IMG/VR virus record: IMGVR_UViG_3300028888_005256
Origin: a virus
Lineage: Duplodnaviria; Heunggongvirae; Uroviricota; Caudoviricetes
Direction: 5' to 3' (one strand)
DNA length: 64,000 bases
Shown here: one piece after another, positions 3,662-52,683 of the stretch
How positions within the stretch are numbered: position 1 is the first letter of the stretch
How the letters are laid out: each line of letters starts with the position of its first letter
The notes under the pieces: generated by a model
The model's input: the letters and a program-made list of their open reading frames with translations, nothing else
The model's database searches: none
What the model was told of the DNA's origin: nothing
Program-made: the position numbers and the translations under genes

Positions 3662-3697
3662 AAGATTTAAAATATTAACAAAGAGAACTAATTTTCT

Positions 3698-10809: not shown

Positions 10810-11289
10810 TTATCTAAAGCTATAATTCACAAATCCTGCACCTGTGCTTACATTTTTCTGTATTCCAGAATTTTTTATTCCTGCATTTTTATCAAAGAAA
10901 TCTTGGAAAACATTTCTCTTAAACTCATTTTCTTTATTTTTCTCTATAGACGCATGAAGCTCTTTTGCAATATCTGCAGGGTTTAGATGCTCATTTACTT
11001 TTGTTACATGAAGTCTCTGAACTGTCTTAGCGTATCTGTCTAATAAAAAATACTCTCCATAGACAGTGCAAGCATTCTGTACATAGCCAAGAATACTTTT
11101 GCCCATTACAGATTCTATCAAATTGTAAAATCTTTCTCGTTTCATTGAGAACTTCAAGTGACCCTCATCTACAATGACTCTTACATTATCTGTAGCTGGG
11201 TTTGGCTGAAAAATCAAAAAGTAAAAGTTCTTCGTAAGCTGCTCTAAAGATTGCTGTTCTGCAACAGGCAATTGCTGATTATTTTCCAT
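10810..11289 (-). CDS. hypothetical protein
   Basis: 159-aa ORF in the same operon as the primase. Confidence 0.45.
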   Translation of the reverse strand: MENNQQLPVAEQQSLEQLTKNFYFLIFQPNPATDNVRVIVDEGHLKFSMKRERFYNLIESVMGKSILGYVQNACTVYGEYFLLDRYAKTVQRLHVTKVNEHLNPADIAKELHASIEKNKENEFKRNVFQDFFDKNAGIKNSGIQKNVSTGAGFVNYSFR

Positions 11290-13138
11290 TTACAAAATCC
11301 TCCAAAGCTGCATTGTCTCCATAATAAGCTTTCTTTACAATTTGAGAAGCAAACTGAAGATCAGCATTCAAATCGAATACTTTGTTGCAGAAAAACTCAT
11401 CATAGACATTTCCACAATAAAGGCCCTTTCTTGTGTTCTTTACACATATAATGAGCTCAAGCAATGACTCCCAGAAAAATACTAATGAAGAAGAGTCATT
11501 TCCGCAAAGCTCATGAACTGCTTTATAAATTCCAGTCCAGAATGCAATTTTCTGTTTTCCGTCATTTGAGTTAGACCATTTGCTTGAAAGCAAGAAGCTA
11601 TCATCATTTATGAAAACATAGGGAAATGCTTCACAGTTTTCATCTTTAGCAGCTTCTGCAGCGTAAGACATTCTCATTGCAGTTAAAAATTTGCCAAGAG
11701 ACTTAGAGAAATGTGCCCTCAAGAACATTATTTTCATCGCATCTCTTGAAATTTTCTGGCCTGTCTCGCTAAAAACTCTATCAGACATCATAGTGTAAAT
11801 GTCTTCTTGTTTGAAGTCATTGTCTGTGCTCAAAAATCTAAGCAAATTTGGTATCATCGATGATACATCTTGTCTAAAGCAGAGATTATTGTCTTCTACA
11901 ATTTTTTCTCGAGTACCATCTTCGTCTGAAGAAGAACATATATTCGACCAGATTCTGCAAGAGTACTTATTCTTCTTTATATGCAGATTCATTCGTTTAT
12001 GGAACTCATCTACTGGGACTGAATTATTGTACTCATCAATAAGCTTAAATGCTAAATCACTTGCTTTATTTGTTTTCTGCGAAAAAGCTACTTTCAACAA
12101 TTTTACAGAAGCACTTTTTACGCTTGCGTCATCTTCTATATCGCATTCTTTAAGGATATTTTTAATATCTGTAAATGCATCTGATTTTTTAGCTTCTTTG
12201 ACATTTGAGTCAGACAATAGAAGAGAAAGACAACAGTTAACTGCATTGTCTAGAGACTTCTTAGCAGAAATCTTTGCAAAAATGTCTTTGTCATTAGAGA
12301 AAAATGACTCTATTTTCTTAGAGGGCTTAAAATTAGAGTAATGAACAAGATCGAAGTTTCTGTCTTGCATTCTTCTTACAAATGATCTAGAGTTGCTTGC
12401 ATTTTTCTTATCGTACAATTCCTCAAAATCTTCTTTGCCAAGCAAGCCCTTGATTGCTTTCAAATTGAGAAGATACGCTGTAGCATAGCTTGCTTTTTTA
12501 TTTACAGAATCGAAACGATAATTCTTGCGTACTTCAAATGTCTGTCTGTCAATATAAGTATTTGGGACTACAAGACCCTCTTCTGCAAGCACATCTACTA
12601 AGCGAGTAAGAGACCTCAAGCCTAAATCAAAATTGTATCGTTCTTTGAGAAAATCAAGAGTAAAATTCGTAAAGCAACAATAGAAAGTGCGTCTATCTAG
12701 ATTCCTCTTAGAATACTTGCCTTCAGTGTCTTTTGCAAGCAAATAGCTCGTCTTGATAAGAGCTTTTATTTGATCCCACTTCTCATTTCTCTTATACTTA
12801 AAGTGGCTTAAAATATTGTCTTTCAATACATTAGGGCTTATTTTAAGTGATCTCAAATATGCATCGGATCTCTCAATTTTAAGACGAGTTCCCTTTGAAC
12901 TATACGCATTTCTCATCTTAAAGCCAAAATTGTAGTAAGTGACAACATCTTGACGAGAAGCTTGCTTTTCTATAATTTTTTGACGAGCATCATTTATTTT
13001 TTGCATGTAAGAAATTCTTTTTGCTCTTGATTTCTGTGCATGCTCATAAAAAGGAATAAAATCTTCAGTAAATACTTTTCTGTCTAAAAGGCTTTGAAGA
13101 AGTGAGTTGTTATGTGATGTACTAGATATATAGGTCAT
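11279..13138 (-). CDS. hypothetical large protein (619 aa); possible replication-associated protein
   Basis: ATG at 13138; three tandem conserved elements lie in its upstream region and the primase lies downstream in the same orientation. No catalytic motif recognised. Confidence 0.5.
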   Translation of the reverse strand: MTYISSTSHNNSLLQSLLDRKVFTEDFIPFYEHAQKSRAKRISYMQKINDARQKIIEKQASRQDVVTYYNFGFKMRNAYSSKGTRLKIERSDAYLRSLKISPNVLKDNILSHFKYKRNEKWDQIKALIKTSYLLAKDTEGKYSKRNLDRRTFYCCFTNFTLDFLKERYNFDLGLRSLTRLVDVLAEEGLVVPNTYIDRQTFEVRKNYRFDSVNKKASYATAYLLNLKAIKGLLGKEDFEELYDKKNASNSRSFVRRMQDRNFDLVHYSNFKPSKKIESFFSNDKDIFAKISAKKSLDNAVNCCLSLLLSDSNVKEAKKSDAFTDIKNILKECDIEDDASVKSASVKLLKVAFSQKTNKASDLAFKLIDEYNNSVPVDEFHKRMNLHIKKNKYSCRIWSNICSSSDEDGTREKIVEDNNLCFRQDVSSMIPNLLRFLSTDNDFKQEDIYTMMSDRVFSETGQKISRDAMKIMFLRAHFSKSLGKFLTAMRMSYAAEAAKDENCEAFPYVFINDDSFLLSSKWSNSNDGKQKIAFWTGIYKAVHELCGNDSSSLVFFWESLLELIICVKNTRKGLYCGNVYDEFFCNKVFDLNADLQFASQIVKKAYYGDNAALEDFVNGK

Positions 13139-13171: not shown

Positions 13172-13205
13172 AAAACCAGTATTTTGAGGGTACTGGTTTT
13201 TCTTG
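13172..13205. promoter_or_regulatory. stable hairpin in the leader of gene 11279-13138
   Basis: AAAACCAGTA-ttttgaggg-TACTGGTTTT flanked by T-runs; lies between the upstream repeat elements and the start codon. Confidence 0.35.
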
Positions 13206-13266
13206 TCTTTAAATTAGTACTAAATCGAAAATACTTAAAAATATTAACAGAAATCTCATCTTAAAA

Positions 13267-13359
13267 AATTTAAATTAATAATTAATAGCGAATATCCTTC
13301 TGCTCCCCCCTCCCCACCAATCTATGCGTACTCGTGGCCATTAATAGTTGACGAATTCG
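13267..13359 (+). repeat. conserved bipartite intergenic element, copy 1 (L-box 24-mer, 48-nt C-rich core, R-box 22-mer)
   Basis: L-box AAATTTAAATTAATAATTAATAGC at 13267-13289 and R-box CCATTAATAGTTGACGAATTCG at 13338-13359; core contains CTGCTCCCCCCTCCCCACC. Confidence 0.85.
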
Positions 13360-13395
13360 TGATATTAGTGGTATCAGTTTTCTTAAAAAGAAATA

Positions 13396-13483
13396 AATTT
13401 AAATTAATAATTAATAGCTATACTCGCAGCAGCCTACTGCTCTGCAATCAGTGAGCGGAGCCCCATTAATAGTTGACGAATTC
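13396..13483 (+). repeat. conserved bipartite intergenic element, copy 2
   Basis: Identical L-box; R-box variant ending AATTCA; core TATACTCGCAGCAGCCTACTGCTCTGCAATCAGTGAGCGGAGCC. Confidence 0.85.
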
Positions 13484-13535
13484 AAGAATAAAAAAACACT
13501 CTACAGTAAAAATTCTTTAAAAATTAATTAATAAA

Positions 13536-13626
13536 AATTTAAATTAATAATTAATAGCTAGCTATCCCCCCCCTGCACCCTCTTCCCACTAGTGCTGATC
13601 GTCCCCATTAATAGTTGACGAATTCG
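13536..13626 (+). repeat. conserved bipartite intergenic element, copy 3
   Basis: Identical L-box and R-box; core contains ATCCCCCCCCTGCACCCTCTTCCCAC and ends TGCTGATCGTCC. Confidence 0.85.
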
Positions 13627-13657
13627 TTTTAAGAGACTGAGATGTTAATATAAATAA

Positions 13658-26893: not shown

Positions 26894-27262
26894 TTAGTCC
26901 TCCGAATAGGTTTGAATAGTTACAGAACCCAAAGCTTTTTTATCCCAATAAAGAACAGCTTCTGAAGAATACGGATCGTTTCCATCTCCTAGTCCTAAAT
27001 GCTCGCAAACAACCTTTTCAATCAAACGCTCCATCTGAAGGTTTGGATTTGCAAGGAGCTTTTCCTGTTCTTCAATTTTTGCTTTCAACCTTGCAATTTC
27101 TTTTTCCTTATCTTCAAGAGCCTCCTGAATTTTCTCCTCAACATCCCGTTTTGGAGTCATATATTTGCAAGCAATCTGCTCTATTTCTTTTGCACGAGAT
27201 TCAGAAATTTTTAACTTTCGAACCTCTGAATAAACGTCCCAACAGCTTTCCTTATACCACAT
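26894..27262 (-). CDS. hypothetical protein
   Basis: AGGAGG SD 9 nt before ATG 27262; conserved promoter motif and bipartite element 4 upstream. Confidence 0.5.
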   Translation of the reverse strand: MWYKESCWDVYSEVRKLKISESRAKEIEQIACKYMTPKRDVEEKIQEALEDKEKEIARLKAKIEEQEKLLANPNLQMERLIEKVVCEHLGLGDGNDPYSSEAVLYWDKKALGSVTIQTYSED

Positions 27263-27288: not shown

Positions 27289-27312
27289 ATTAATAATATA
27301 ATAGAGAAAAGA
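27289..27312 (-). promoter_or_regulatory. conserved phage promoter motif (CTTTTCTCTATTATATTATTAATG)
   Basis: TATTATATTA motif family member, between element 4 and the SD of gene 26894-27262. Confidence 0.55.
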
Positions 27313-27314
27313 TT

Positions 27315-27393
27315 AATTTTTAAATTAATAATTAATAGCAACCAACCTACCCTCTAATATGCTGATCGTCCCCATTAATAGTTGACGAATTCG
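27315..27393 (+). repeat. conserved bipartite intergenic element, copy 4
   Basis: L-box 27315-27339, R-box 27372-27393, 32-nt core AACCAACCTACCCTCTAATATGCTGATCGTCC. Confidence 0.85.
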
Positions 27394-27437
27394 TATATTA
27401 TAAATTTGTATACCATAATTCAAGATGTATAATATAC

Positions 27438-27456
27438 GAATGTATATATGTTTTAG
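27438..27456 (+). promoter_or_regulatory. conserved GAATGTATATATGTTTTAG unit (extended -10-like TGTATATAT)
   Basis: Same unit is present twice on the minus strand at 43211-43230 and 43249-43267. About 60 nt after the R-box here and at 43.2 kb are co-conserved. Confidence 0.4.
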
Positions 27457-28820
27457 GCTGCTGTTTTCAGATAGAATTCGTAGAATCTGTAAGTTTTCTC
27501 AAGATTGTAGAGAACATTTTCTAACGCCTCTAAGTCTTTCCTTTCTGAGAGAAGACCTATGAGAGTATTTACAGACTCAATGTCGGCTTTGAACTCTGCA
27601 ATTGAGACTTGGCGTTCTTCTGCAGTTTTTGAGTTGTCTGCTGATGCTTGAAGAACATTGACTGCTTTATCCCCTGTAAGAGGGAGACTTGTCGTTATTT
27701 GTGTGTAAATGTCTAGGAGCTTTTCATTGAGCTGCTCCGCATTGAGTGACTTTACAGAGTCAAATGCCAGTCCAAGAGCTTGGACTTTTTGAGAAATTGT
27801 CTCTGCGTCTTTGAAGAACTCTTCAAGAGAAGACTCTTCTTTAGCAGAATTAGTAAAGCCTGCACGAGCTTGGATTTCTACAATTATAGACTTTACAGTC
27901 TGCTCAGCAATGTCTCTCCATTTCTCAAGCTGCTTTGGCTCAAAATTTCCTGTGCCTGCACCAATAAGACCATCACTCATTGCACGGATCCAACTAGGGG
28001 ACGTGATTGAGTACCTAGCACAAGCTGTGACCATTTTTACAAGCATACCAATTGTTCGAATGCTAAAAAAGTTCAACACATGCTCGTCTTTTGCGTTCAT
28101 TGCGTCATACAAATCGCTTAAATGCTTATTTGAAGGATCAAGGTAGCCAGACGAGGAGCTCCTAGACGAGTAAGCTTTGCATAAGTCTCCAAGCTTGTCA
28201 TGGACTATTTTGAGAATGTCTTTTTCTGAGACATTAAAGTCTTTAATTTCTTTAAAAGTCGGAAGTTTTTCTGAGCGTTCTTCAACAGTCTGAAGTGCCT
28301 CATCAAGCATAGACTGCATAGAGTCAGCTTCGATATTTACAATGCAAAATCGGTTAATTGACGGTGCAGTTACTTCAAATGCAGGAGGAAGATTCCACCT
28401 GTAGTTTGCTGCTGACACAATAACACAATTGTCTGGAAGTGTTCGTCCTTTACCGTCACAACGATTAAAAATCAATCTGTAAAGGGAGCCCTGAACATCA
28501 ATAGGCGCTGTAGAAATCTCATCAATAAAGAGGACTGTTGGTATGTCTTTTTTTGCATATTCTTCAACCTCTTCAAACCAGTTTGGCTTCATAATTTCAA
28601 GGTAGTCTTTTCCAGTGTTTACCATATAGCCCATCAATTCTGAGCGGTCATACGCTGAGCCAATCAAGGTAACTACATGGTACCCTTTCATTTTTGCCCA
28701 GTTTTCAACATTTGTTGTTTTAGCAAGACCAGGGTTCGAGATAAAAAGAACAGGAACTTCAGACTTGACTGATGCTTCAATTGCATGAAGAAGTAGATCT
28801 CGAATTTTATTTTTAGCCAT
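27453..28820 (-). CDS. MoxR-like AAA+ ATPase
   Basis: Walker A SNPGLAKTT; Walker B VLFIDEIS; start moved to ATG 28820, 9 nt after GGAGG (track start 28889 lacks an RBS). Confidence 0.7.
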   Translation of the reverse strand: MAKNKIRDLLLHAIEASVKSEVPVLFISNPGLAKTTNVENWAKMKGYHVVTLIGSAYDRSELMGYMVNTGKDYLEIMKPNWFEEVEEYAKKDIPTVLFIDEISTAPIDVQGSLYRLIFNRCDGKGRTLPDNCVIVSAANYRWNLPPAFEVTAPSINRFCIVNIEADSMQSMLDEALQTVEERSEKLPTFKEIKDFNVSEKDILKIVHDKLGDLCKAYSSRSSSSGYLDPSNKHLSDLYDAMNAKDEHVLNFFSIRTIGMLVKMVTACARYSITSPSWIRAMSDGLIGAGTGNFEPKQLEKWRDIAEQTVKSIIVEIQARAGFTNSAKEESSLEEFFKDAETISQKVQALGLAFDSVKSLNAEQLNEKLLDIYTQITTSLPLTGDKAVNVLQASADNSKTAEERQVSIAEFKADIESVNTLIGLLSERKDLEALENVLYNLEKTYRFYEFYLKTAA

Positions 28821-28848
28821 AAAAACCTCCAATTTAGTGTATTGAATG

Positions 28849-28872
28849 TTATAGTAATATAATAAGAAAAGT
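28849..28872 (-). promoter_or_regulatory. conserved phage promoter motif (CTTTTCTTATTATATTACTAT)
   Basis: TATTATATTA motif family member, upstream of the AAA+ ATPase gene. Confidence 0.55.
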
Positions 28873-29050
28873 TTAGTCTTTTCTAGCAAACATAACTAAG
28901 TACTTATAATTGAAATCTTTTTAGCGGTTTCATATGCAAAGGACTTGCAGTATATTGCAGGCGAAGAACTTCGTAATATCGAAAGTCGGGAAAAGTCGTT
29001 TAAGAAGACAGAGATTAGAAATCTTACAACAAAAAGGAAAACTCAAGAAA

Positions 29051-40344: not shown

Positions 40345-41382
40345 TCAGCTCTTGAAAAATAATTCAAAGTACTCATTTCCAATGTCGCCAAACTCTTCAA
40401 CAAGTTTCTGTCTTTTGTCACTATCTGAAACTTTCTCACCAGTCTCAGATTCAATCATGCCAAAAGTAGACTTAATATTGTTAAGTTTCCTGTCTAACTG
40501 TTTAGTTCTGCGATTCCACTCTAATTCTGTAATTGGCTCTACTGGAAGTTTCTGTGTATCAAAAATATCGTAGACTCTATGATTTCTGCTATCACAAATA
40601 ACTACAATATTCTCATTTTTCTTCCAAGCAGTGTAATTTCCAAAGCAGTATTCAGTGTGGCCTACAACCTGTCTAGGATAGTATGCGTCTTCAAGAAGTG
40701 AATGCGGTCGAATCCACAAGCAAAATTGTGTCTTTTCGTCTCCGCTTCCTGAGAAATATCCATCCCAATCAAGTTTTTCATCGAATGAGCTTGAAAAATT
40801 AGTGGTTCCAGGAAAATGTGTTCTCTCATGCCAGCATTTATTCAAGAAATCTATAGAGTACTCTTTTGAGTCCCATTCTTTCACATCTTTATAGAGCTCT
40901 GCAAAATATGCATCAGCTTCTTCTTTAGAGTCAAATGCAGTCTTCTCCGCTTTCGGGTATTTTGTGTAAATATTATGCATGACATCACACATCAACTTCA
41001 CAGCAGTTTTAGAAAATCCTGCATGGCTAAAAACCCATCCGTCACATTCAAAAGCAAGATCTATAATGTCTTTGTTTGAGATAAATAAAGCTCTATATAA
41101 AGCTGCCATATTAGACTGATGACCACTACAGTTAGAGCCTTCTCTAGAACCTGAAAAATAACTCCAATCATGGTTCCCTAAAAGCAATTTTACTTTGTCT
41201 GGATTCTTTCTTTTGAAGTCAAAAATGTCTTTTACGTTCTCTTCTTGGTCAGGATGCTTGTTATTCCATGAGTCTACATAGTCTCCAAGAAAAACTACAT
41301 AATCTACTTCAGAAATTTTTTCTTTTGCAATTTCCCATTCATGAGAACCATGCACATCTGGTACTATAAGAATCTTTGCCAT
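40345..41382 (-). CDS. PPP-family (lambda-phosphatase/ApaH-like) metallophosphatase with C-terminal extension
   Basis: Motifs PDVHG, GDYVDSW, GNHDW (GDxHG / GDxVDRG / GNHE pattern). Start moved to ATG 41382; track start 41403 is TTG. Confidence 0.6.
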   Translation of the reverse strand: MAKILIVPDVHGSHEWEIAKEKISEVDYVVFLGDYVDSWNNKHPDQEENVKDIFDFKRKNPDKVKLLLGNHDWSYFSGSREGSNCSGHQSNMAALYRALFISNKDIIDLAFECDGWVFSHAGFSKTAVKLMCDVMHNIYTKYPKAEKTAFDSKEEADAYFAELYKDVKEWDSKEYSIDFLNKCWHERTHFPGTTNFSSSFDEKLDWDGYFSGSGDEKTQFCLWIRPHSLLEDAYYPRQVVGHTEYCFGNYTAWKKNENIVVICDSRNHRVYDIFDTQKLPVEPITELEWNRRTKQLDRKLNNIKSTFGMIESETGEKVSDSDKRQKLVEEFGDIGNEYFELFFKS

Positions 41383-41396
41383 AATTAGAAATATTA

Positions 41397-41428
41397 ACAG
41401 CAAAAGGGAGACAAACTTGTCCCCCTCT
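41397..41428 (-). terminator. rho-independent terminator (minus strand)
   Basis: GGGGGACAAGTTTGTCTCCC then TTTTGC on the minus strand, between the AAA ATPase and the phosphatase genes. Confidence 0.55.
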
Positions 41429-43176: not shown

Positions 43177-43275
43177 AATCTCTTATATGAAATTAACATA
43201 GATTGAATATCTAAAACATATATACATTTGTATAATTATATTCGATCAAAAACATATATACATGTGTTTATTATA

Positions 43276-43355
43276 CGAATTCGTCAACTATTAATGGGGA
43301 CGATCAGCATATAGTAGGAGGGTTAGAACTGCTATTAATTATTAATTTAAATTTT
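43276..43355 (-). repeat. conserved bipartite intergenic element, copy 5 (inverted orientation)
   Basis: Reverse complement gives an exact L-box and R-box with core AGTTCTAACCCTCCTACTATATGCTGATCGTCC. Confidence 0.85.
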
Positions 43356-43393: not shown

Positions 43394-46300
43394 ATGTTAA
43401 ACGAGAAGCAACAATCATCTTTACTATACAAGCATTTTATGGGCATGGGCTCTACTCGTCTTCAGAGAGAATTCTTCGAGGAGTCTGCTAAATCTGCTTT
43501 CGCTGTTCTTCCAAAAGATATTTGGATGTATGCAGAAATGATTCCTAATGGATCTGAAGTTTCAGGTGGACTTGAATCTCTTGAAAAGATCAGAGACCTT
43601 TCAGCTGAGAATCCTTTGTTCACTTGGTTCAAGACTGAGTCTCAGCCAAAGTACCCAATTGTAAAATTTTGGGATAAACTTAGACTTACGCCTGTCGATG
43701 ATGGCACTGACAATTCATTCTATGTAAAAGACGAGAATGGTAATTTTATACGCAATGCGATCCCATTCAATTACTATGAAGACTATTATGCGTACTCTCT
43801 TTATACAGAAGACGGACGACAAATTCCTTTCGGCGTAGGTGATTGGACTTTTGATGCATCTTCAGGCATCTTGTCTTTCTTTGACATTATTCCTGATGGC
43901 ATAGACCATAATCATCCACCATTGTTCTCTTTCTATCAGTACGCAGGTGAATGTGGCATCAAGAGTTCTCTAGATGATTTGTTTGAGTCTGCAGTTTTGC
44001 CAATTACAAATTTCTGCATCCCAGAAGGCTCACCATTCATTTCTCTGAATAAAGACAATGAAAAGACTCTTCTTGAGCATATCAAAGATCAGACAAACAA
44101 AGTAGAAGACAATTATCTCTCTACTTATGGCTTTGACGGTGGTGATAAGAATGAAGGTGTTGCTTTCTCATGGGAAAGAGTCTTTCCTCTAATCTACACA
44201 AAGACAAAAGATTACGTAAAGGGCTATGATTCTAGTGCGACAGCTCAGATTGTTGTTACTTACTCTAGCAAATATGCAGTTTCTGAAGCAGAAAATGATT
44301 TCTTCTCTGTAGGCTTCGTTTCACATAATTGCTCTGATGAGAAGTTCACTCTCAAGCTTTCTGAGGGAAATATCGAATCTTGGGCAGACGGTGAGCTGAT
44401 TGATTCTAAAGCATTCAATTCTCAGCCAGATACAGCAAACATAAAGCTTGCATTGAACAATGGCTTCTGTTATGTACAGAAAAAGTCGAGCTTCACAGAA
44501 GATGCTGAATTTGAATTCTCTGTAGCAAACAGCATTGGTGAAGACGGAAAAGTAACTGGATTGCTTTTGTACTGGTCTTCAGCTAAGATGGACTATCTCC
44601 CATTTGTGCCTAAAGAAGAAGACCACTATGATTTCGGCTTCCCAATTGTAAGCCTTATTGGTAAGATTCCTCCTTCAATGAAGATGGACTCTACAGCTCT
44701 TACATCATTTGAAGATCAGATTACGCCAGATTACTATGGTCCTAGAGTTGCAGTTGCAGTAATTGGTCTTGAAGACGGTGATGCAACAAAATCTGCTGAC
44801 TACATTGTAAAGAATAAGCCTGGTTTCTATTTAGATGAGATTCTTACGGCAGTAAGAGAAGACCATCACTACGGAAAAGTTTATCTTCGTTCTGGCATCT
44901 ACAAGACAACGGGCACTCTTGATTTAAGTGATATCATCATTGAGGGCGAGGGCGACACTAAGATTGAAGGAGACACTCTTACAATAAGCAATGGTGAGAG
45001 AGACTACAATCATACATGCATTTCTCATATTGAACTTGACTTCAAAGACATAAGCATCTCTAATGACAACTGTATCATTGCAAATGTTTTCGCAAATTCT
45101 GCTACAATCACTGTAGAAGCAGATGTACAGAAGTTCATTCTTGAAAATGCTACAGTAGACACATTAAAGATTAAAGCTTCTAATCCAGCTGATTTTAGTC
45201 TAAAAGTTTTCAGCAGCAGATTCAGAAATGTAGAGATTGAATCAGCAAATGTAGTATTTGCAGATAATGTTGTAACAGGTTCATTGACTCTTCCAGAGAA
45301 TTTTAATTCTTACATCAAGTCTTCTTACATCAATAAAGTCTTCAATTTTAGCACAAAAGCAAAAGTTGACGGCACTTTCATAAATGAATATGATTTAGAG
45401 TCAGTTGCTGAGCATGGCATTACACCTATCGGTTCAGACAAAGAAGATACAACTGGACGATTTGCAATTTTTGATAAGAATGATTTCAAAAGCACTCGAT
45501 ATGCTGAATTCAAAGAGCCATTCCACTACAATAGAGACACTGATGTAATTGAGCTTCTTTATGACAAAGACTATGTAGACCTTGATGCAGATGGCAGACT
45601 TTATGTTACAGCAGACACAAAGCATTTGCACCCTGCACCAGATACAGTATTCTCTCGTGGAGATAATGCTTCAGATGATAATAAAGAATTCTTGCCTGCA
45701 AAGCAGTACAATTACAAAGATCATACAATAGACGATGTTCTTAAAGATTTGTGGCATGAAAAGGCCGACTTGACTGCTAGTGGAAAGATTCCTTTGCAGC
45801 AATTGCCAGATGCAGTAGCTTATGGTGGATTGATGTATGTAGGAAACTGGTCATTTGAAGACCATGATGGTGAGTACCCTACATTCAATGATGCAAACCA
45901 ATTCTTGTCTGCTGACAACACTAATAAAGCAATTCAGCGTGGTTGGTTCTGGGTTGTATCTGCTTCTAAAAATAAAGATAGCGATAGCGAAGAAGAAAAC
46001 ACTCCAGTAGCAGTTCAAGTTGCTAAAGATGGTGTAGAATATACTGCAGGTGACTGGGTAGTTTACTGTGGCGGTGAGAAACAATGGGATAAGCTTGATA
46101 GAGCATTCTCTGATCCAGCATACTCACCTCTCCCCTCTTCATCAAAAGCAACAGACGAGCCAGATAAGCCTTGGTACTGGAAAAACGATAGAAGGGGTGG
46201 AGCTCTTGAGCTTGGTGGCGATACAATCATCACTGCTTTCAATAAAGTAAATGATCAGCTCAGAAAACTTGAGCCTAGAAAGCCAGACAGTATCAATGAC

Positions 46301-47830
46301 AGTGAGCTCGTTCTTGATGATAAAGACATTCCAAAAATTAAGTTCCGCAAAATGACTTCCGGTGACACGCCAAGCGAAGAAGTTTATGAAGCTTATGATG
46401 GTTCTTACTTTGATGGTGAGAAGTCACTTCACTACACATTGAAGAACAAAAGTCCTTCTGACTCTAATTTGATTTACTTTGGCGATAGCGCAAAAGTTTC
46501 TGTAGAGCTTAATGAGCAAACTATTCTAGATGATTACAATGTAGGTGAAGCTTATAATGCTGGCGGAATTCATATCTCTGCACCAAAAGATGCATTTGAG
46601 AATGAAGTAATGGGCAAGAGCTTCTGGAACGGTATCTCAATTGATATTGATGTTCCAGTAAGAGACTACAATAAGCTTGAAGAGTCAGACACATCAGAAT
46701 TCGTACCTGGTGTAGATAATAATTCTCTAAAAGTTTCTCTTACAAATGTAAGAATTGACGGAGATGATTCTGAGCAAATGTCTTCTTACAATGGAAATGC
46801 TTTTGCAAGATTCAGTTCTGTGATACCATACTTCTATCTTAATGATAGCTCGTTATTCAATGTCAGAATTGCAAATCAAGACAGAATAAATGCTTTGATG
46901 AAAAGAGACATTTGTTCAGGAATAGAACAAACTACTCTTGACAAGATTGAGAAACTTGAATTCTCTGGTGAGCTGACAGGCATTTGGTCTAACATTCTTC
47001 ATGAAAGTCGTTTAATAGACTTCAAGGTAATGCTCAATGACAAAGATGTATTCTGTGAGACAGTCAATGGCGATACTGCTTTGAGTTTCAAGAACACTGC
47101 ACAAAGTGGCAGCCATGCAAATTACAGTGCCGACTTTGACATTGATATGCCAATTACATTTGACAAAGACATTATTCTTACTGAAGATGATGAGCTTGAA
47201 TTGTATGCTACTTTCTATAGTGTAAAAGGAACTACAGAAGTGAAGATTGCTTCATTCAAGAATGTCTTTAGAATTGATGGAGTGTCTGAGAAAGAAAGAC
47301 TTACTGCAGGCTCATTTGATGAGATTCATGACATCAATTATGGAGAAGCATTCAACAGCAATTCTCCTGAAGATGGTGCAAGCATTAAGAAAGGCAGAAT
47401 GCTTGAGAATGGAAAACATATTTATGAGTACTCTCCTGGTACTGCATGCTTCTATCTTGGCGAATTTGACAACATTGCAGGCTTTACAGTAGAGATTCAC
47501 ATCCCAGAAGATAAAGAAGTCCCTGCTGTAGATAAATTTACTGGTTCTACTGAAGGCCTTAGACTTCAATGTAGATTTGAGACTGAGCATGAAGATTCTG
47601 GCTCAGGATTGACAATGAGAGATGCAGCTTCTCCTTGGCTTGATTGCAACTCTCCAGTTGGCTGGTATAATAAGCCTGCTAATGATTTAGATCCAGTTAT
47701 GTATGCAGCAAAGTCTACAGCTCTTAGAAAGAGAGTTTCTTTCGGAAGACTACTTTACTCTGGAAAATTGTACATTCGCTTGAAGACAGAGTTTGAATTC
47801 ACTAGTGTTGAGTTGGTTGAGGTTGTTTAA
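43394..47830 (+). CDS. very large structural protein, probable tail fibre/tail spike (1478 aa)
   Basis: Repetitive beta-strand-like blocks (ISNDNCIIANVFANSATITVEADV...) suggest a beta-helix. Assignment is inference from size and composition. Confidence 0.45.
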   Translation: MLNEKQQSSLLYKHFMGMGSTRLQREFFEESAKSAFAVLPKDIWMYAEMIPNGSEVSGGLESLEKIRDLSAENPLFTWFKTESQPKYPIVKFWDKLRLTPVDDGTDNSFYVKDENGNFIRNAIPFNYYEDYYAYSLYTEDGRQIPFGVGDWTFDASSGILSFFDIIPDGIDHNHPPLFSFYQYAGECGIKSSLDDLFESAVLPITNFCIPEGSPFISLNKDNEKTLLEHIKDQTNKVEDNYLSTYGFDGGDKNEGVAFSWERVFPLIYTKTKDYVKGYDSSATAQIVVTYSSKYAVSEAENDFFSVGFVSHNCSDEKFTLKLSEGNIESWADGELIDSKAFNSQPDTANIKLALNNGFCYVQKKSSFTEDAEFEFSVANSIGEDGKVTGLLLYWSSAKMDYLPFVPKEEDHYDFGFPIVSLIGKIPPSMKMDSTALTSFEDQITPDYYGPRVAVAVIGLEDGDATKSADYIVKNKPGFYLDEILTAVREDHHYGKVYLRSGIYKTTGTLDLSDIIIEGEGDTKIEGDTLTISNGERDYNHTCISHIELDFKDISISNDNCIIANVFANSATITVEADVQKFILENATVDTLKIKASNPADFSLKVFSSRFRNVEIESANVVFADNVVTGSLTLPENFNSYIKSSYINKVFNFSTKAKVDGTFINEYDLESVAEHGITPIGSDKEDTTGRFAIFDKNDFKSTRYAEFKEPFHYNRDTDVIELLYDKDYVDLDADGRLYVTADTKHLHPAPDTVFSRGDNASDDNKEFLPAKQYNYKDHTIDDVLKDLWHEKADLTASGKIPLQQLPDAVAYGGLMYVGNWSFEDHDGEYPTFNDANQFLSADNTNKAIQRGWFWVVSASKNKDSDSEEENTPVAVQVAKDGVEYTAGDWVVYCGGEKQWDKLDRAFSDPAYSPLPSSSKATDEPDKPWYWKNDRRGGALELGGDTIITAFNKVNDQLRKLEPRKPDSINDSELVLDDKDIPKIKFRKMTSGDTPSEEVYEAYDGSYFDGEKSLHYTLKNKSPSDSNLIYFGDSAKVSVELNEQTILDDYNVGEAYNAGGIHISAPKDAFENEVMGKSFWNGISIDIDVPVRDYNKLEESDTSEFVPGVDNNSLKVSLTNVRIDGDDSEQMSSYNGNAFARFSSVIPYFYLNDSSLFNVRIANQDRINALMKRDICSGIEQTTLDKIEKLEFSGELTGIWSNILHESRLIDFKVMLNDKDVFCETVNGDTALSFKNTAQSGSHANYSADFDIDMPITFDKDIILTEDDELELYATFYSVKGTTEVKIASFKNVFRIDGVSEKERLTAGSFDEIHDINYGEAFNSNSPEDGASIKKGRMLENGKHIYEYSPGTACFYLGEFDNIAGFTVEIHIPEDKEVPAVDKFTGSTEGLRLQCRFETEHEDSGSGLTMRDAASPWLDCNSPVGWYNKPANDLDPVMYAAKSTALRKRVSFGRLLYSGKLYIRLKTEFEFTSVELVEVV

Positions 47831-50109: not shown

Positions 50110-50412
50110 TTAAATATTTACAGACGAGTAAAGACTGCAGAAGTCTTCTACGTCCATCATTTTGAATCGGCCATCAATTATAGCACCAACACTTTCAATA
50201 TCTGAATGCGGTACAGTTGTTTTAAGAGAATCAAGGCCCTCATCTTCTGTAGCATAGAAAGATCGTCCCTTATTGCCAGCAAACATGTACTCGCTGCGTA
50301 TGCCTTTGCTTTCTTTGCGTCGTTTGTAGAAACTTGCATCCTTGTTGAGTTTTACAAGAACGACTCCTTTAATTACATGATTTCTTCTTATAGTAGTGCT
50401 CTCTTCAGACAT
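50110..50412 (-). CDS. hypothetical protein
   Basis: AGGAG SD; conserved promoter motif and element 6 upstream. Confidence 0.45.
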   Translation of the reverse strand: MSEESTTIRRNHVIKGVVLVKLNKDASFYKRRKESKGIRSEYMFAGNKGRSFYATEDEGLDSLKTTVPHSDIESVGAIIDGRFKMMDVEDFCSLYSSVNI

Positions 50413-50438: not shown

Positions 50439-50462
50439 TAGTAATATAATAGAAAAATAGTA
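50439..50462 (-). promoter_or_regulatory. conserved phage promoter motif (CTATTTTTCTATTATATTAC)
   Basis: TATTATATTA motif family member. Confidence 0.55.
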
Positions 50463-50466
50463 AATA

Positions 50467-50548
50467 TTTTTAAATTAATTAATAATTTAATAGCAACCAA
50501 CCCACCCTTCAATATAGCGCTCGTGGCCATTAATAGTTGACGAATTGG
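50467..50548 (+). repeat. conserved bipartite intergenic element, copy 6 (diverged)
   Basis: L-box variant with small insertions (TTTAAATTAATTAATAATTTAATAGC); R-box CCATTAATAGTTGACGAATTGG; core AACCAACCCACCCTTCAATATAGCGCTCGTGG. Confidence 0.8.
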
Positions 50549-50556
50549 TAATCATA

Positions 50557-50586
50557 GGGTAACAATTGTTAACCATGGGTAACAAG
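50557..50586. promoter_or_regulatory. operator-like site: GGGTAACAA direct repeats around the perfect 12-bp palindrome TAACAATTGTTA
   Basis: GGGTAACAATTGTTAACCATGGGTAACAAG, about 160 nt upstream of gene 50745. Confidence 0.4.
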
Positions 50587-50744
50587 TTCTGAAAAATGTC
50601 TTAGAGAAGAGTACAAACTAATTATTCAAAATCTTAATCTTATATGAAGCGGCTACCATGCGATCGTGATATTGAGAAATCAATGAAAACTGCAAAATAT
50701 GATAAGTGCTCAAATTTAAGCAGTGGCATGAGAAGGAATACATA

Positions 50745-52016
50745 ATGAGAGTAACAAACAACTCTGTAAAGTTCTCAGATGTTCTCAGAGAGGCATCAAG
50801 AGTAAAAAAAGCTAATGGTGAAGATCCTAGAATCACAGCCAAAGAGTTCAAAGCATTGAGAGAAGAGTACAAAAAAGTGCTCGGAAAAACTTCTGAGAAA
50901 CTCAATGAATCAAAAGATGAAGATCCTGTCTTCACAAAAGCTTGTGAAAAGCTTTCTGAAAAGAAAGTTGAAAAAGGTCTTCCAGCAAGATTGACTGAAT
51001 CAGAGAAATCTGCTATCAGAGCAGAGATTGATGCATTCAATACACTTCAGCCAAATGTTATCAAAGCATTCCGCGAAGCTAAACTTGCTAAAGGTCTTTC
51101 TCCTGTTATCTCAGAAAATGAGAGAAAAGTTCTTCTTGAAGAGCAGCAGAAAGCATACCTCAATGAGAATGCAAAGCCTGCTGAAAACAAAGAACCTCTT
51201 AAAGAAGAGAAAACAGATCACAAAGCAGCTATTCGTGAAGCTCGTGTAAATATCTACAAAGCTAAGAAAGCTCTCCGTGAGGGTGACTTGAATGCAGCAG
51301 CAGATGCAACTCAGGCAGCAGATGCAAGTCTTAATGCAGTTGATGCAGCACAGGAAGCAGTTCCTCAGAACATTGCTGATACAGTGGCAGAACTTGGCGC
51401 AGTAGTTGACGACCTTAAAGCACAGTGTGGTGTACAGGACACACCTGATATGGGTGCAAATCCTGAAGCAAATCTTCCACCAGTAACTGGCGCACCAGCT
51501 GATAATGCTCCTGCAGCAGATCCAAATGCAGCACCAGCTCCAGCAGCTCCAGCAGCTCCTATTCAGGAATCTACAGAGCCAAAAGGTGCTTCTAAGCTTG
51601 AAGAGATTAAAGCTCGCCTCGCTCAGAGAGAAGCTGCTCTTGCAAAAATCAAAGAATCTGTAGCACAGGATTTTGGAAAGAATGCTCTTGCTGATATTGG
51701 AACAAAACTTCCTGAAGCAATGATCGACGATCCAAAGAAAGTTGACAAGAAAGACAGTCCAGACACAATGACTCTTCCTACACAGAAAGAGCTTGCAGCT
51801 GGCACAGCAAAGGACGTTGTAAGATGGCCTACTGAAAAGACTAAGGGTCTTCCAACAACTTTGACTGAGTCTAAAGAAGAGCCTGCTGAAGAGAAACTTG
51901 AGGAATCTCTTGCAGAACAGTTTGTTACAAAGAAACTTCAGGAAAATGAAGATTCTAAGAACTGGAACTGGAGCAAGATTCTTGCAAGCGGAATTCTTAG
52001 CCCAACACTCGGCTAA
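50745..52016 (+). CDS. Ala/Pro/Lys/Glu-rich low-complexity protein (possibly scaffold-like)
   Basis: ATG 50745 after GAGAAGGAA; PAPAAPAAP tract; followed by a bidirectional terminator. Confidence 0.5.
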   Translation: MRVTNNSVKFSDVLREASRVKKANGEDPRITAKEFKALREEYKKVLGKTSEKLNESKDEDPVFTKACEKLSEKKVEKGLPARLTESEKSAIRAEIDAFNTLQPNVIKAFREAKLAKGLSPVISENERKVLLEEQQKAYLNENAKPAENKEPLKEEKTDHKAAIREARVNIYKAKKALREGDLNAAADATQAADASLNAVDAAQEAVPQNIADTVAELGAVVDDLKAQCGVQDTPDMGANPEANLPPVTGAPADNAPAADPNAAPAPAAPAAPIQESTEPKGASKLEEIKARLAQREAALAKIKESVAQDFGKNALADIGTKLPEAMIDDPKKVDKKDSPDTMTLPTQKELAAGTAKDVVRWPTEKTKGLPTTLTESKEEPAEEKLEESLAEQFVTKKLQENEDSKNWNWSKILASGILSPTLG

Positions 52017-52080: not shown

Positions 52081-52683
52081 CTATATGCCAGTGCTTCCGA
52101 ATCCGCCAGAGCCTCTAGAAGTTTTTTCTGAGTAGAAAGACTTCTGCAGCTCAGGATTCGTAAACCCATCTACAAATTCAGGCTTTGTCAAATCAATAAG
52201 CTTAGGAATAAGCTGAACCATCTTCTGGCCAAAGTCGAGATGAGTGCAAAGGTCTTTAGAGTAGTTTATGATATGAATCCCAATCTCACCTTGATAGCTT
52301 GAATCAATAATACAAGCACCACACTGAAACTTCTGTTTGCGGCAGACTCCTGATTTGTTGTTCACTTCAAGCTCGATATTGTTGTTGAAGCTAGACTTTA
52401 TTCCAGACGGGATAAGAATGTCATCGCCGGGCATAACAAAAATGCCAGATTCAGAAGCAGTTGTTCTTAAACGGTTATTTCGAAGCTTCACACCATAGAA
52501 AGGCGTTTCAACAATCTCAATCCAAGGGTTGAGCTCTTTAAGCTCTTTCAAGAACTCAAGTGAAAATTCTGGTACAAAGAAGTCAAAACCAGCATCTTCA
52601 CCAACATTTCTATTTGGGAACTTTACGTCCCGAATTCGCATAAATTTCATCATAATAAGATTATTAACATCTATTCGAGACAA
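52081..52683 (-). CDS. dut: trimeric dUTP diphosphatase (dUTPase)
   Basis: All five dUTPase motifs: AGFDF, NKSG, GACIIDSSYQGEIG, QKMVQL, SRGSGGFGSTG. Confidence 0.85.
   Translation of the reverse strand: MSRIDVNNLIMMKFMRIRDVKFPNRNVGEDAGFDFFVPEFSLEFLKELKELNPWIEIVETPFYGVKLRNNRLRTTASESGIFVMPGDDILIPSGIKSSFNNNIELEVNNKSGVCRKQKFQCGACIIDSSYQGEIGIHIINYSKDLCTHLDFGQKMVQLIPKLIDLTKPEFVDGFTNPELQKSFYSEKTSRGSGGFGSTGI

Follow-up and report, generated by a model that had tools for sequence, protein, structure and literature searches.

A composite intergenic repeat of an uncultivated jumbo phage contains a short box conserved across distant relatives

Results

Genomic setting

The window, the whole 64,000-nt stretch of DNA analysed here, derives from an uncultivated jumbo phage; its ORFs are identical at the protein level on a 326,542-nt contig. 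It encodes GroEL, a primase, a helicase, an RNA ligase, a DNA methyltransferase and gp30.3, together with a weak match to a T4-type portal. Catalogued phages include no near relative (megablast and blastn against 50,697 phage records returned nothing significant). Logan contigs with 0 mismatches to the window allowed us to extend the genome, bringing the coverage to ~71 of at least 326 kb; the right-hand extension (64.0–69.7 kb) contained nothing new.

Pfam searches of the 63 window ORFs (64 of at least 326 kb) revealed no obvious sequence-specific regulator, and no RNA polymerase (RNAP) or sigma factor is recognisable in these ORFs or in the extension and relative loci (~71 of at least 326 kb). 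One ORF, 43394–47830 on the plus strand, encodes a 1478-aa protein of β-helix-like repeats lacking any Pfam or PHROG match. More than 100 homologs (28–39% identity) are found on contigs of up to ~295 kb, making this protein a marker of a large uncultivated jumbo-phage clade. We considered it as a hidden RNAP and rejected the idea, given the β-helix-like repeats and the lack of a catalytic DxDGD motif. The true starts of four ORFs with mechanically assigned TTG/GTG starts (27453–28889, 40345–41403, 50706–52016 and 52081–52683) are probably further downstream than listed: within the listed 5′ ends there are promoter motifs and better ATGs, for example ATG 50745 with the Shine–Dalgarno (SD) sequence GAGAAGGAA.

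Anatomy of the repeat family

Six copies of a bipartite element are present in the window, at the positions claimed by an earlier, sequence-only reading, and a seventh lies in the left-hand extension. Each window copy comprises an A+T-rich L-box, a variable core and an R-box, and all copies are intergenic.

Copy 1, 13265–13359, plus strand: L-box 13265–13289, core 13290–13337, R-box 13338–13359
Copy 2, 13394–13484, plus strand: L-box 13394–13418, core 13419–13462, R-box 13463–13484
Copy 3, 13534–13626, plus strand: L-box 13534–13558, core 13559–13604, R-box 13605–13626
Copy 4, 27315–27393, plus strand: L-box 27315–27339, core 27340–27371 (32 nt), R-box 27372–27393
Copy 5, 43276–43355, minus strand (inverted): R-box 43276–43297, core 43298–43330, L-box 43331–43355
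Copy 6, 50467–50548, plus strand: L-box 50467–50494, core 50495–50526, R-box 50527–50548
Copy 7, 14762–14857 of contig L012: same genome, 1.2 kb beyond the left edge of the window, 0 mismatches in the overlap
R-side extension common to copies 4 and 5, 27394–27457, plus strand: AT-rich 11–14 bp hairpin, ending in TGTATATATGTTTTAG
R-side extension of copy 5, 43213–43275, minus strand: homologous to 27394–27457, with TGTATATATGTTTT twice

The repeat family is real: all six window copies carry the R-box 20-mer CCATTAATAGTTGACGAATT without a mismatch (0 expected in shuffles), and a nhmmer profile run over the window recovers exactly these six, with no degenerate copies. The L-box is ~24 nt long and ~96% A+T, its 21-mer TTTAAATTAATAATTAATAGC being exact in five copies. 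Between the boxes, the cores vary from 32 to 48 nt and are only 48–78% identical to one another, which, set beside the exact boxes, points to selection on the boxes and not on the spacer. The resulting L-box-to-R-box spacing is variable and shows no helical phasing. Read from L to R, every core has more C than G (copy 1, 48 nt, C20/G7 with runs of C6 and C4; copy 2, 44 nt, C14/G11; copy 3, 46 nt, C22/G6 with a C8 run). On the sense strand of the L-side gene the cores are G-rich, as the sequence-only reading had stated.

Copies 1–3 form a triple array at 13.3 kb with tandem spacings of 125 and 142 nt, adjoining an operon with a 619-aa gene, the primase and the helicase. The R-box of copy 2 ends in TTCA in place of TTCG. 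Copy 6 had been described as diverged, and is so: TAAT is inserted in its L-box, TTGG replaces TTCG in its R-box, and its core is a mosaic of a copy-4-like L half and a copy-1-like R half. Copy 7 has an A-rich tract (AAAAATAAAAATATTAGC) where the L-box would be, then a 44-nt C-rich core and a perfect R-box, at which the contig ends. L side first, it starts 2 nt past the TAA that closes an 850-aa gene.

A unit of ~140 nt is common to copies 4 and 5, including an extra ~60 nt beyond the element as first described. The extension at 27394–27457 overlaps the stop codon of the minus-strand gene 27453–28889; 3′ of the copy 5 extension come TGTTAATT (43191–43198) and then ATG 43176. The 14-mer TGTATATATGTTTT occurs three times (27441–27454, plus; 43213–43226 and 43249–43262, minus), each time flanking copy 4 or 5 on the side of the R-box. 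At 50556–50590, between copy 6 and the gene from 50745, two direct GGGTAACAA repeats overlap a near-palindrome, GGTAACAATTGTTAACC, in an arrangement that looks operator-like. Across the window the palindrome ATTAAT occurs 31 times, 21 of them inside or beside elements; outside the elements (63 kb) it is ~3-fold depleted, at 10 against ~33 expected. CATATG, TGATCA and CTTAAG are likewise depleted in the window.

Promoter motifs beside the cassette

According to the sequence-only reading, the interval from L-box to start codon always holds a TATTATATT-type −10 and an SD. This is wrong. TATTATATTA with GGAGG or AGGAG follows the L-box at copies 4 and 6 only; copy 5 has neither a TATTATATT motif nor an SD across the 38 nt from its L side to ATG 43394, and after the L-box of copy 1 comes another motif, TGTTAATAT. 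The claimed L-box-to-start distances themselves (52, 38, 54 and 126 nt) are confirmed. The motifs beside the elements are as follows.

27294–27324, minus strand: sigma-70-like early promoter of gene 26894–27262 (TTTAAA, 15-nt spacer, TATTATATTA, SD GGAGG)
50442–50474, minus strand: sigma-70-like early promoter of gene 50110–50412 (TTTAAA, 17-nt spacer, TATTATATTA, SD AGGAG)
13242–13249, minus strand: TGTTAATA motif between copy 1 and the 619-aa gene (11279–13138)
13643–13650, plus strand: TGTTAATA motif between copy 3 and ATG 13658

In both early promoters, TTTAAA is the outer end of the L-box. Six element-free early promoters carry TTGAAA, TTCAAA or TAGAAA at the same −35 position. At copies 4 and 6, where TTTAAA is in register, the L-box therefore probably also serves as the −35/UP region; the proposal that it does so as a general rule is not supported. 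TATTATATTA recurs at seven exact sites and one near-exact site in the window, defining an early-promoter class of TTGAAA, a 15–16 nt spacer and TATTATATTAYTAT, usually followed by a GGAGG-type SD and an ATG (clear at six of the eight).

Sites of the early-promoter class: 5580 (plus), 23170 (minus), 27294 (minus), 28855 (minus), 36297 (minus), 42846 (minus), 50442 (minus), 60862 (minus)

Sites 23170 and 42846 lack a clear SD and ATG, and an ordinary terminator hairpin (GTCGGAA...TTCCGAC and a T-run) lies just upstream of 5580. Motifs similar to this class occur in two relatives (L013 and L019).

The R-box contains a −35-like hexamer, TTGACG, for which no copy had been credited with a correctly spaced −10. 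We find no good −10 at 17 ± 1 nt, in agreement; copy 6 has a weak match (9/12), and among the relatives described below only L009 places a −10 (TATACT) at the right spacing. Sigma-70 scans of the four intergenic regions returned hits at or below shuffle expectation, the L-box/TATTATATT pairs excepted.

ATG 13658 opens the 113-aa ORF that immediately precedes the GroEL gene. TGTTAATAWW, a second motif class, occurs at 3673 (minus), 13242 (minus), 13643 (plus), 41392 (minus), 43191 (minus) and 52662 (minus), and also in L007, L008, L010 and L013, its conservation extending to distant relatives. It usually ends 7–17 nt before an ATG, with no Shine–Dalgarno at the sites inspected; at 13242 the ATG is ~100 nt on, past a weak AGGA. 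This class may represent a phage-specific promoter, or else an extended −10 promoter whose mRNAs would be almost leaderless. Between the TGTTAATA motif and the SD, the 5′ leader of the 619-aa gene contains a hairpin (13176–13200; CCAGTA...TACTGG, then TTTTCC) that may be an attenuator or a stabilising structure.

Gene context and orientation

The element had been read as obeying a strict orientation rule, with R-box, G-rich core and L-box (as UP element or −35), then promoter, SD and ATG, on the sense strand of the nearest downstream gene. The rule is not borne out; statistically it is close to empty, and copies beyond the window violate it. At 13.3, 43.3 and 50.5 kb, three of the four window loci, the flanking genes diverge, and the R-box therefore faces a gene start as well: 31 nt to ATG 13658 for copy 3, 100 nt to ATG 43176 for copy 5 and ~196 nt to the probable ATG 50745 for copy 6. 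The 27.3 kb locus lies between two minus-strand genes and is thus the sole window locus able to test the rule. Its R-box had been said to face a convergent gene, but 27453–28889 is on the same strand as 26894–27262 and is its upstream, co-directional neighbour. In the triple array, the L-boxes of copies 2 and 3 face the next array copy, with no gene or −10 after them.

Copies in an extended genome had been named as a check on the rule, and copy 7 breaks it: its L side abuts the end of the 850-aa gene (we judged its orientation against this one known flanking gene). Over all loci, the L side meets seven gene starts and one gene end, and the R side five gene starts, two gene ends and one unknown, counts without a meaningful difference. 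Co-directional contexts occur in both orientations, copy 4 and L013_A (a copy in a relative) one way and copy 7 the other.

A directional upstream cassette does account for several observations. The order is kept at four of five loci in this genome and at L013_A, L013_B and L007; both clearly co-directional contexts (copy 4 and L013_A) agree with it; and TTTAAA is in register with the early-promoter −35 at copies 4 and 6. Against this, three of the four window loci are divergent, with a gene start faced by the R-box equally often, copies 2 and 3 have neither gene nor −10 past the L-box, copies 1 and 5 lack the TATTATATT motif (copy 5 also the SD), and the L side of copy 7 falls 2 nt past a stop codon. 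At the L013 locus orthologous to copy 5, moreover, the R-box points towards the ortholog of the 1478-aa gene, opposite to copy 5, and the part conserved in evolution is the R-box, the L-box being lineage-specific. The data thus do not support a generalised directional module upstream of the L-side gene, and we consider this explanation unlikely.

Conservation of the R-box in relatives

Homologs of the R-box occur in relatives. In L013, a 240-kb phage whose 1492-aa protein is orthologous to the 1478-aa protein (39% identical), there are three copies of AAATCTAGAAG-AAATAAAAAAAATAT-TCCCCCTA-CCATTAATAGGTGACAAATTGCC, with an exact 23-mer (0 expected by chance). Two form a tandem pair in the divergent region upstream of the 1492-aa ortholog, R-box towards that gene and so opposite to copy 5; the third has a co-directional gene on either side, the arrangement of copy 4. 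R-box homologs are also found in L007 (619-aa homolog, 33% identical), L009 (GroEL, 60% identical) and L014, as partial copies at contig ends (L007, …GTCATTAATAGTTGACAAA; L009, CCATTAATAGTTGCCAAATTCGG…; and L014).

Aligning 12 sequences gives 14 invariant columns, CATTAATAG.TG.C.AA, within the motif CATTAATAG-[G/T]-TG-[A/C]-C-[A/G]-AA, followed by TT wherever sequence is available. Upstream of the R-box, C exceeds G in 10 of 10 full copies (this phage and L013), although the C-run of the L013 version is only 5–6 nt. The base before the R-box is C in all lineages except L007, where it is G. Every lineage retains a −35-like hexamer inside the R-box (TTGACG, GTGACA, TTGACA or TTGCCA).

The element is absent from the GroES/GroEL upstream regions of relatives with 75, 60 and 58% GroEL identity, and L019, a 35%-identity relative, has no copy in 24.6 kb. 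Exact and gapped box scans of IMG/VR, JGI metagenome contigs and GTDB genomes yielded only chance matches, in coding DNA or an unrelated bacterial promoter, and searching the literature for the box sequences gave nothing relevant. By the alignment, the R-box is ancient and common to jumbo phages whose proteins are only 33–60% identical, and the L-box and long spacer are lineage-specific elaborations. Copy 7, with its A-rich tract in place of an L-box, looks like the ancestral form.

In four different samples, Logan contigs break off inside the element. Of the five broken ends, the end of L012, the start of L007, the end of L009 and the start of L014 fall in the R-box, and the start of L011 falls in the core, 10 nt before the R-box. 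Contigs ending within a repeat imply that it is multi-copy in each of those genomes and fragments their assemblies.

Such breaks are what a selfish or neutral dispersed repeat (MITE-like), or a mere recombination substrate without a regulatory role, would also produce; the presence/absence differences between related genomes, the mosaic copies and the inverted orientation at an orthologous locus fit that explanation too. The element, however, has no terminal inverted repeats and no target-site duplications, its ends having only a direct 8-nt ATTAATAG in common, and there is no transposase in the window. The 20-bp core of the R-box is invariant while the accompanying proteins have diverged to 33–60% identity, which argues for purifying selection on a function. 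We therefore hold a functionless repeat to be distinctly unlikely. Two specific repeat types were tried and rejected. A MITE or IS-derived repeat is contradicted by ends formed of unrelated, non-inverted boxes and by the lack of a transposase family in the window Pfam summary. A CRISPR mini-array or solitary repeat would require related boxes, and L-box and R-box share only the 8-nt ATTAATAG; the stretches from R-box to next L-box, 34 and 49 nt, are not conserved.

The sharp edge of the R-box raises a further prospect, that it is a promoter for a phage-specific RNAP or sigma factor, firing from R to L. The geometry would be T7-like, with a ~20 bp block ending before the GG or G-run that starts the transcript, and with tandem copies like T7 early promoters. 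Read in this direction, the block AATT-YG-KCA-M-CTATTAAT ends sharply, GG is next in 11 of 12 sequences and G-rich sequence follows; a gene start lies downstream at seven of eight loci, and the tandem copies are 125 and 142 nt apart. The block partly resembles the T7/T3/K11 promoter pattern (AATT...CAC.TAT...GG), a resemblance we treat as a lead. Set against these points, transcription from copy 7 would run antisense into the 850-aa gene at its 3′ end, and neither a single-subunit RNAP, a sigma factor nor a DxDGD-type motif is found in the window, the extension or the relative loci. The L-box would fall at +35 to +60 and need a separate explanation, and copies 4 and 6 already have a complete sigma-70-like promoter after them. 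We rate this promoter as improbable. The same holds for its broader form, in which the R-box would be the promoter or specificity site of unrecognised phage-encoded transcription machinery in a large clade of uncultivated 240–330 kb jumbo phages, with starts at the G-run and with G-rich leaders expanded in this lineage into G-quadruplex or R-loop formers.

RNA structure, G-rich cores and small ORFs

There is no conserved RNA fold on either strand. Rfam and tRNA/tmRNA (ARAGORN) searches of the 64 kb gave no match, and terminator-like sites (a GC-rich hairpin with a U-tract) number zero in all four intergenic regions. Fold z-scores of single sequences range from −2.76 to +0.59 and are mostly non-significant, −2.76 being reached only by copy 4 on the plus strand. 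RNAalifold predicts, over both strands, only a 5-bp TCGTC/GACGA hairpin (−0.8 and −4.1 kcal/mol), which shows no covariation and cannot form in L013.

These results weigh on the idea of a small-RNA gene read from L to R, with an L-box promoter, a C-rich anti-SD-like seed (CCCUC/CCUCC), the R-box as scaffold and a hairpin terminator. The cores are indeed C-rich and G-poor, with CCCTC or CCTCC in five of six copies; the early genes use strong GGAGG SDs; each of the six window copies has AATAAT, a potential −10, 7 nt ahead of its core; and a hairpin with a U-rich tract lies past the R-box of copies 1, 4 and 5. Only copy 2 passes a promoter scan, though (TTAAAA-17-AATAAT), the −35 elements being poor or absent in five of six copies, and copy 3 lacks a terminator and continues into the next gene. 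With no Rfam match, no conserved structure and no covariation, with no conserved seed in the short C-run of L013, and with L007 carrying G and not C before its R-box, a small-RNA gene seems very unlikely.

In an origin or R-loop reading, transcription from R to L, with a G-rich non-template strand, would produce a stable R-loop or G-quadruplex beside the AT-rich L-box, which would serve as the unwinding element. Such an arrangement recalls T4 oriF/oriG and mitochondrial CSBII. Cores 3 (−2.08) and 1 (−1.96) give the two strongest G4Hunter peaks in the 64 kb, the L-box is ~96% A+T and the triple array sits beside the operon of the 619-aa gene, primase and helicase. Only two of seven cores pass the usual G4 threshold, however, and copy 2 has no G4 signal; no upstream promoter is defined, five loci in 71 kb are dense for origins, and the GC-skew profile merely tracks gene orientation. 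This reading, too, appears highly improbable.

A micro-ORF was rejected as well. The ATG of TTAATGG is present in 12 of 12 sequences, but the ORFs it opens (6–32 codons) have no SD and no common frame, length or sequence; we treat this ATG as incidental.

Discussion

The explanation we favour, tentatively and with a probability of roughly 40%, is that a clade-specific protein recognises the R-box as double-stranded DNA, the box being carried by a cassette that resembles the promoter-early stem-loops (PeSLs) of T4-type phages. The exact boxes, the diverging spacer, the intergenic and promoter-bearing position, the occurrence in both orientations and the deep conservation of the R-box all point to a DNA site; it is from this anatomy, conservation and placement that we infer protein binding and a regulatory role. 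The cassette would be built round an old R-box of ~20 bp, common to distantly related jumbo phages, with a spacer in which C exceeds G and then an A/T tract on one flank. In this phage, the tract may have turned into the ~24-nt L-box while the spacer grew to 32–48 nt. A sequence-specific protein would read the R-box in transcription-control regions, where it may act as an operator, an activator site or an architectural site. The whole unit would behave like a PeSL, adjoining promoters, recombining between copies and coming and going between related genomes. At 27.3 and 50.5 kb only, the outer end of the L-box would also supply the −35/UP of a sigma-70-like early promoter.

Some observations sit less easily with a protein-recognition site. 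Pfam over the 63 window ORFs (64 of at least 326 kb) gives no candidate for the binding protein, and a spacing of 32–48 nt that is not helically phased fits poorly with one protein complex in contact with both boxes. The strand asymmetry of the C-run is conserved, yet a simple binding site has no need of it; it may point to a process confined to one strand, for example transcription, an R-loop or a G-quadruplex. The −35-like hexamer, together with the sharp end of the block before GG, could mark a promoter instead of an operator.

The closest analogue described so far is probably the PeSL of T4-type phages (Arbiol et al. 2010, PMC2839356; Comeau et al. 2014, PMC4122927), in which a stem-loop precedes an AT-rich tract and a sigma-70 promoter that lead into an SD and an ATG, and whose copies recombine with one another. 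The two kinds of cassette are alike in being composite, ~100 bp long and present in several intergenic copies in large lytic phages; both contain G/C homopolymer tracts, and both show mosaic copies and presence/absence between relatives. At copies 4 and 6 the likeness extends to the order of parts (upstream module, AT-rich tract, sigma-70-like early promoter, SD and ATG), the AT-rich L-box lying directly upstream of the −35 and overlapping it. The phage also carries T4-like genes (gp30.3, RNA ligase and the weak T4 portal match). The upstream PeSL module, in contrast, is a stable polyG/polyC stem-loop acting as terminator or attenuator, whereas the spacer here is C-rich on one strand only and has no predicted stable hairpin. 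The most conserved part here is the 20-bp non-promoter R-box, absent from PeSLs, and most copies (1–3, 5 and 7) are not followed by an early promoter. PeSLs mediate shuffling between copies, seen as indels between close relatives and as mini-circles; recombination here may be suggested, indirectly, by the mosaic copies and by the lack of the element at the GroES locus of relatives. Since the terminator stem-loop was tested for and is absent, we do not file the element as a PeSL.

Two other kinds of phage site invite comparison. Promoters of T7/T3/SP6-type RNAPs are likewise strictly conserved, asymmetric blocks of ~20 bp with several intergenic copies per genome; in both, the block ends sharply just before a G-run, and the tandem spacing of ~125–140 bp fits. 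They differ from the R-box in having a cognate RNAP, which is not found in the available sequence, and copy 7 would point into a convergent gene; the sequence similarity to the T7 class appears only partial. Binding sites of phage-encoded regulators form the second kind. The phi29 p4 sites and the T4 MotA box are short conserved motifs in divergent promoter regions or just upstream of promoters, recognised by a phage protein and present in few to many copies per genome. Here, by contrast, the distance to the nearest −10 is not constant, the flanking C-run and A-tract are without counterpart in such sites, and the cognate protein was not found among the 63 window ORFs.

The regulatory DNA of uncultivated jumbo phages is almost unknown. 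What is new here is an R-box that, across the sequences compared, is conserved among distant jumbo phages. An invariant non-coding motif of ~20 bp is a handle for finding the protein that would read it, and the R-box offers a way to chart control regions in related genomes from metagenomes. It also flags assembly break points, as in the contigs from four samples. With an attractive orientation rule corrected, two promoter-like motif classes are now defined for annotating this clade.
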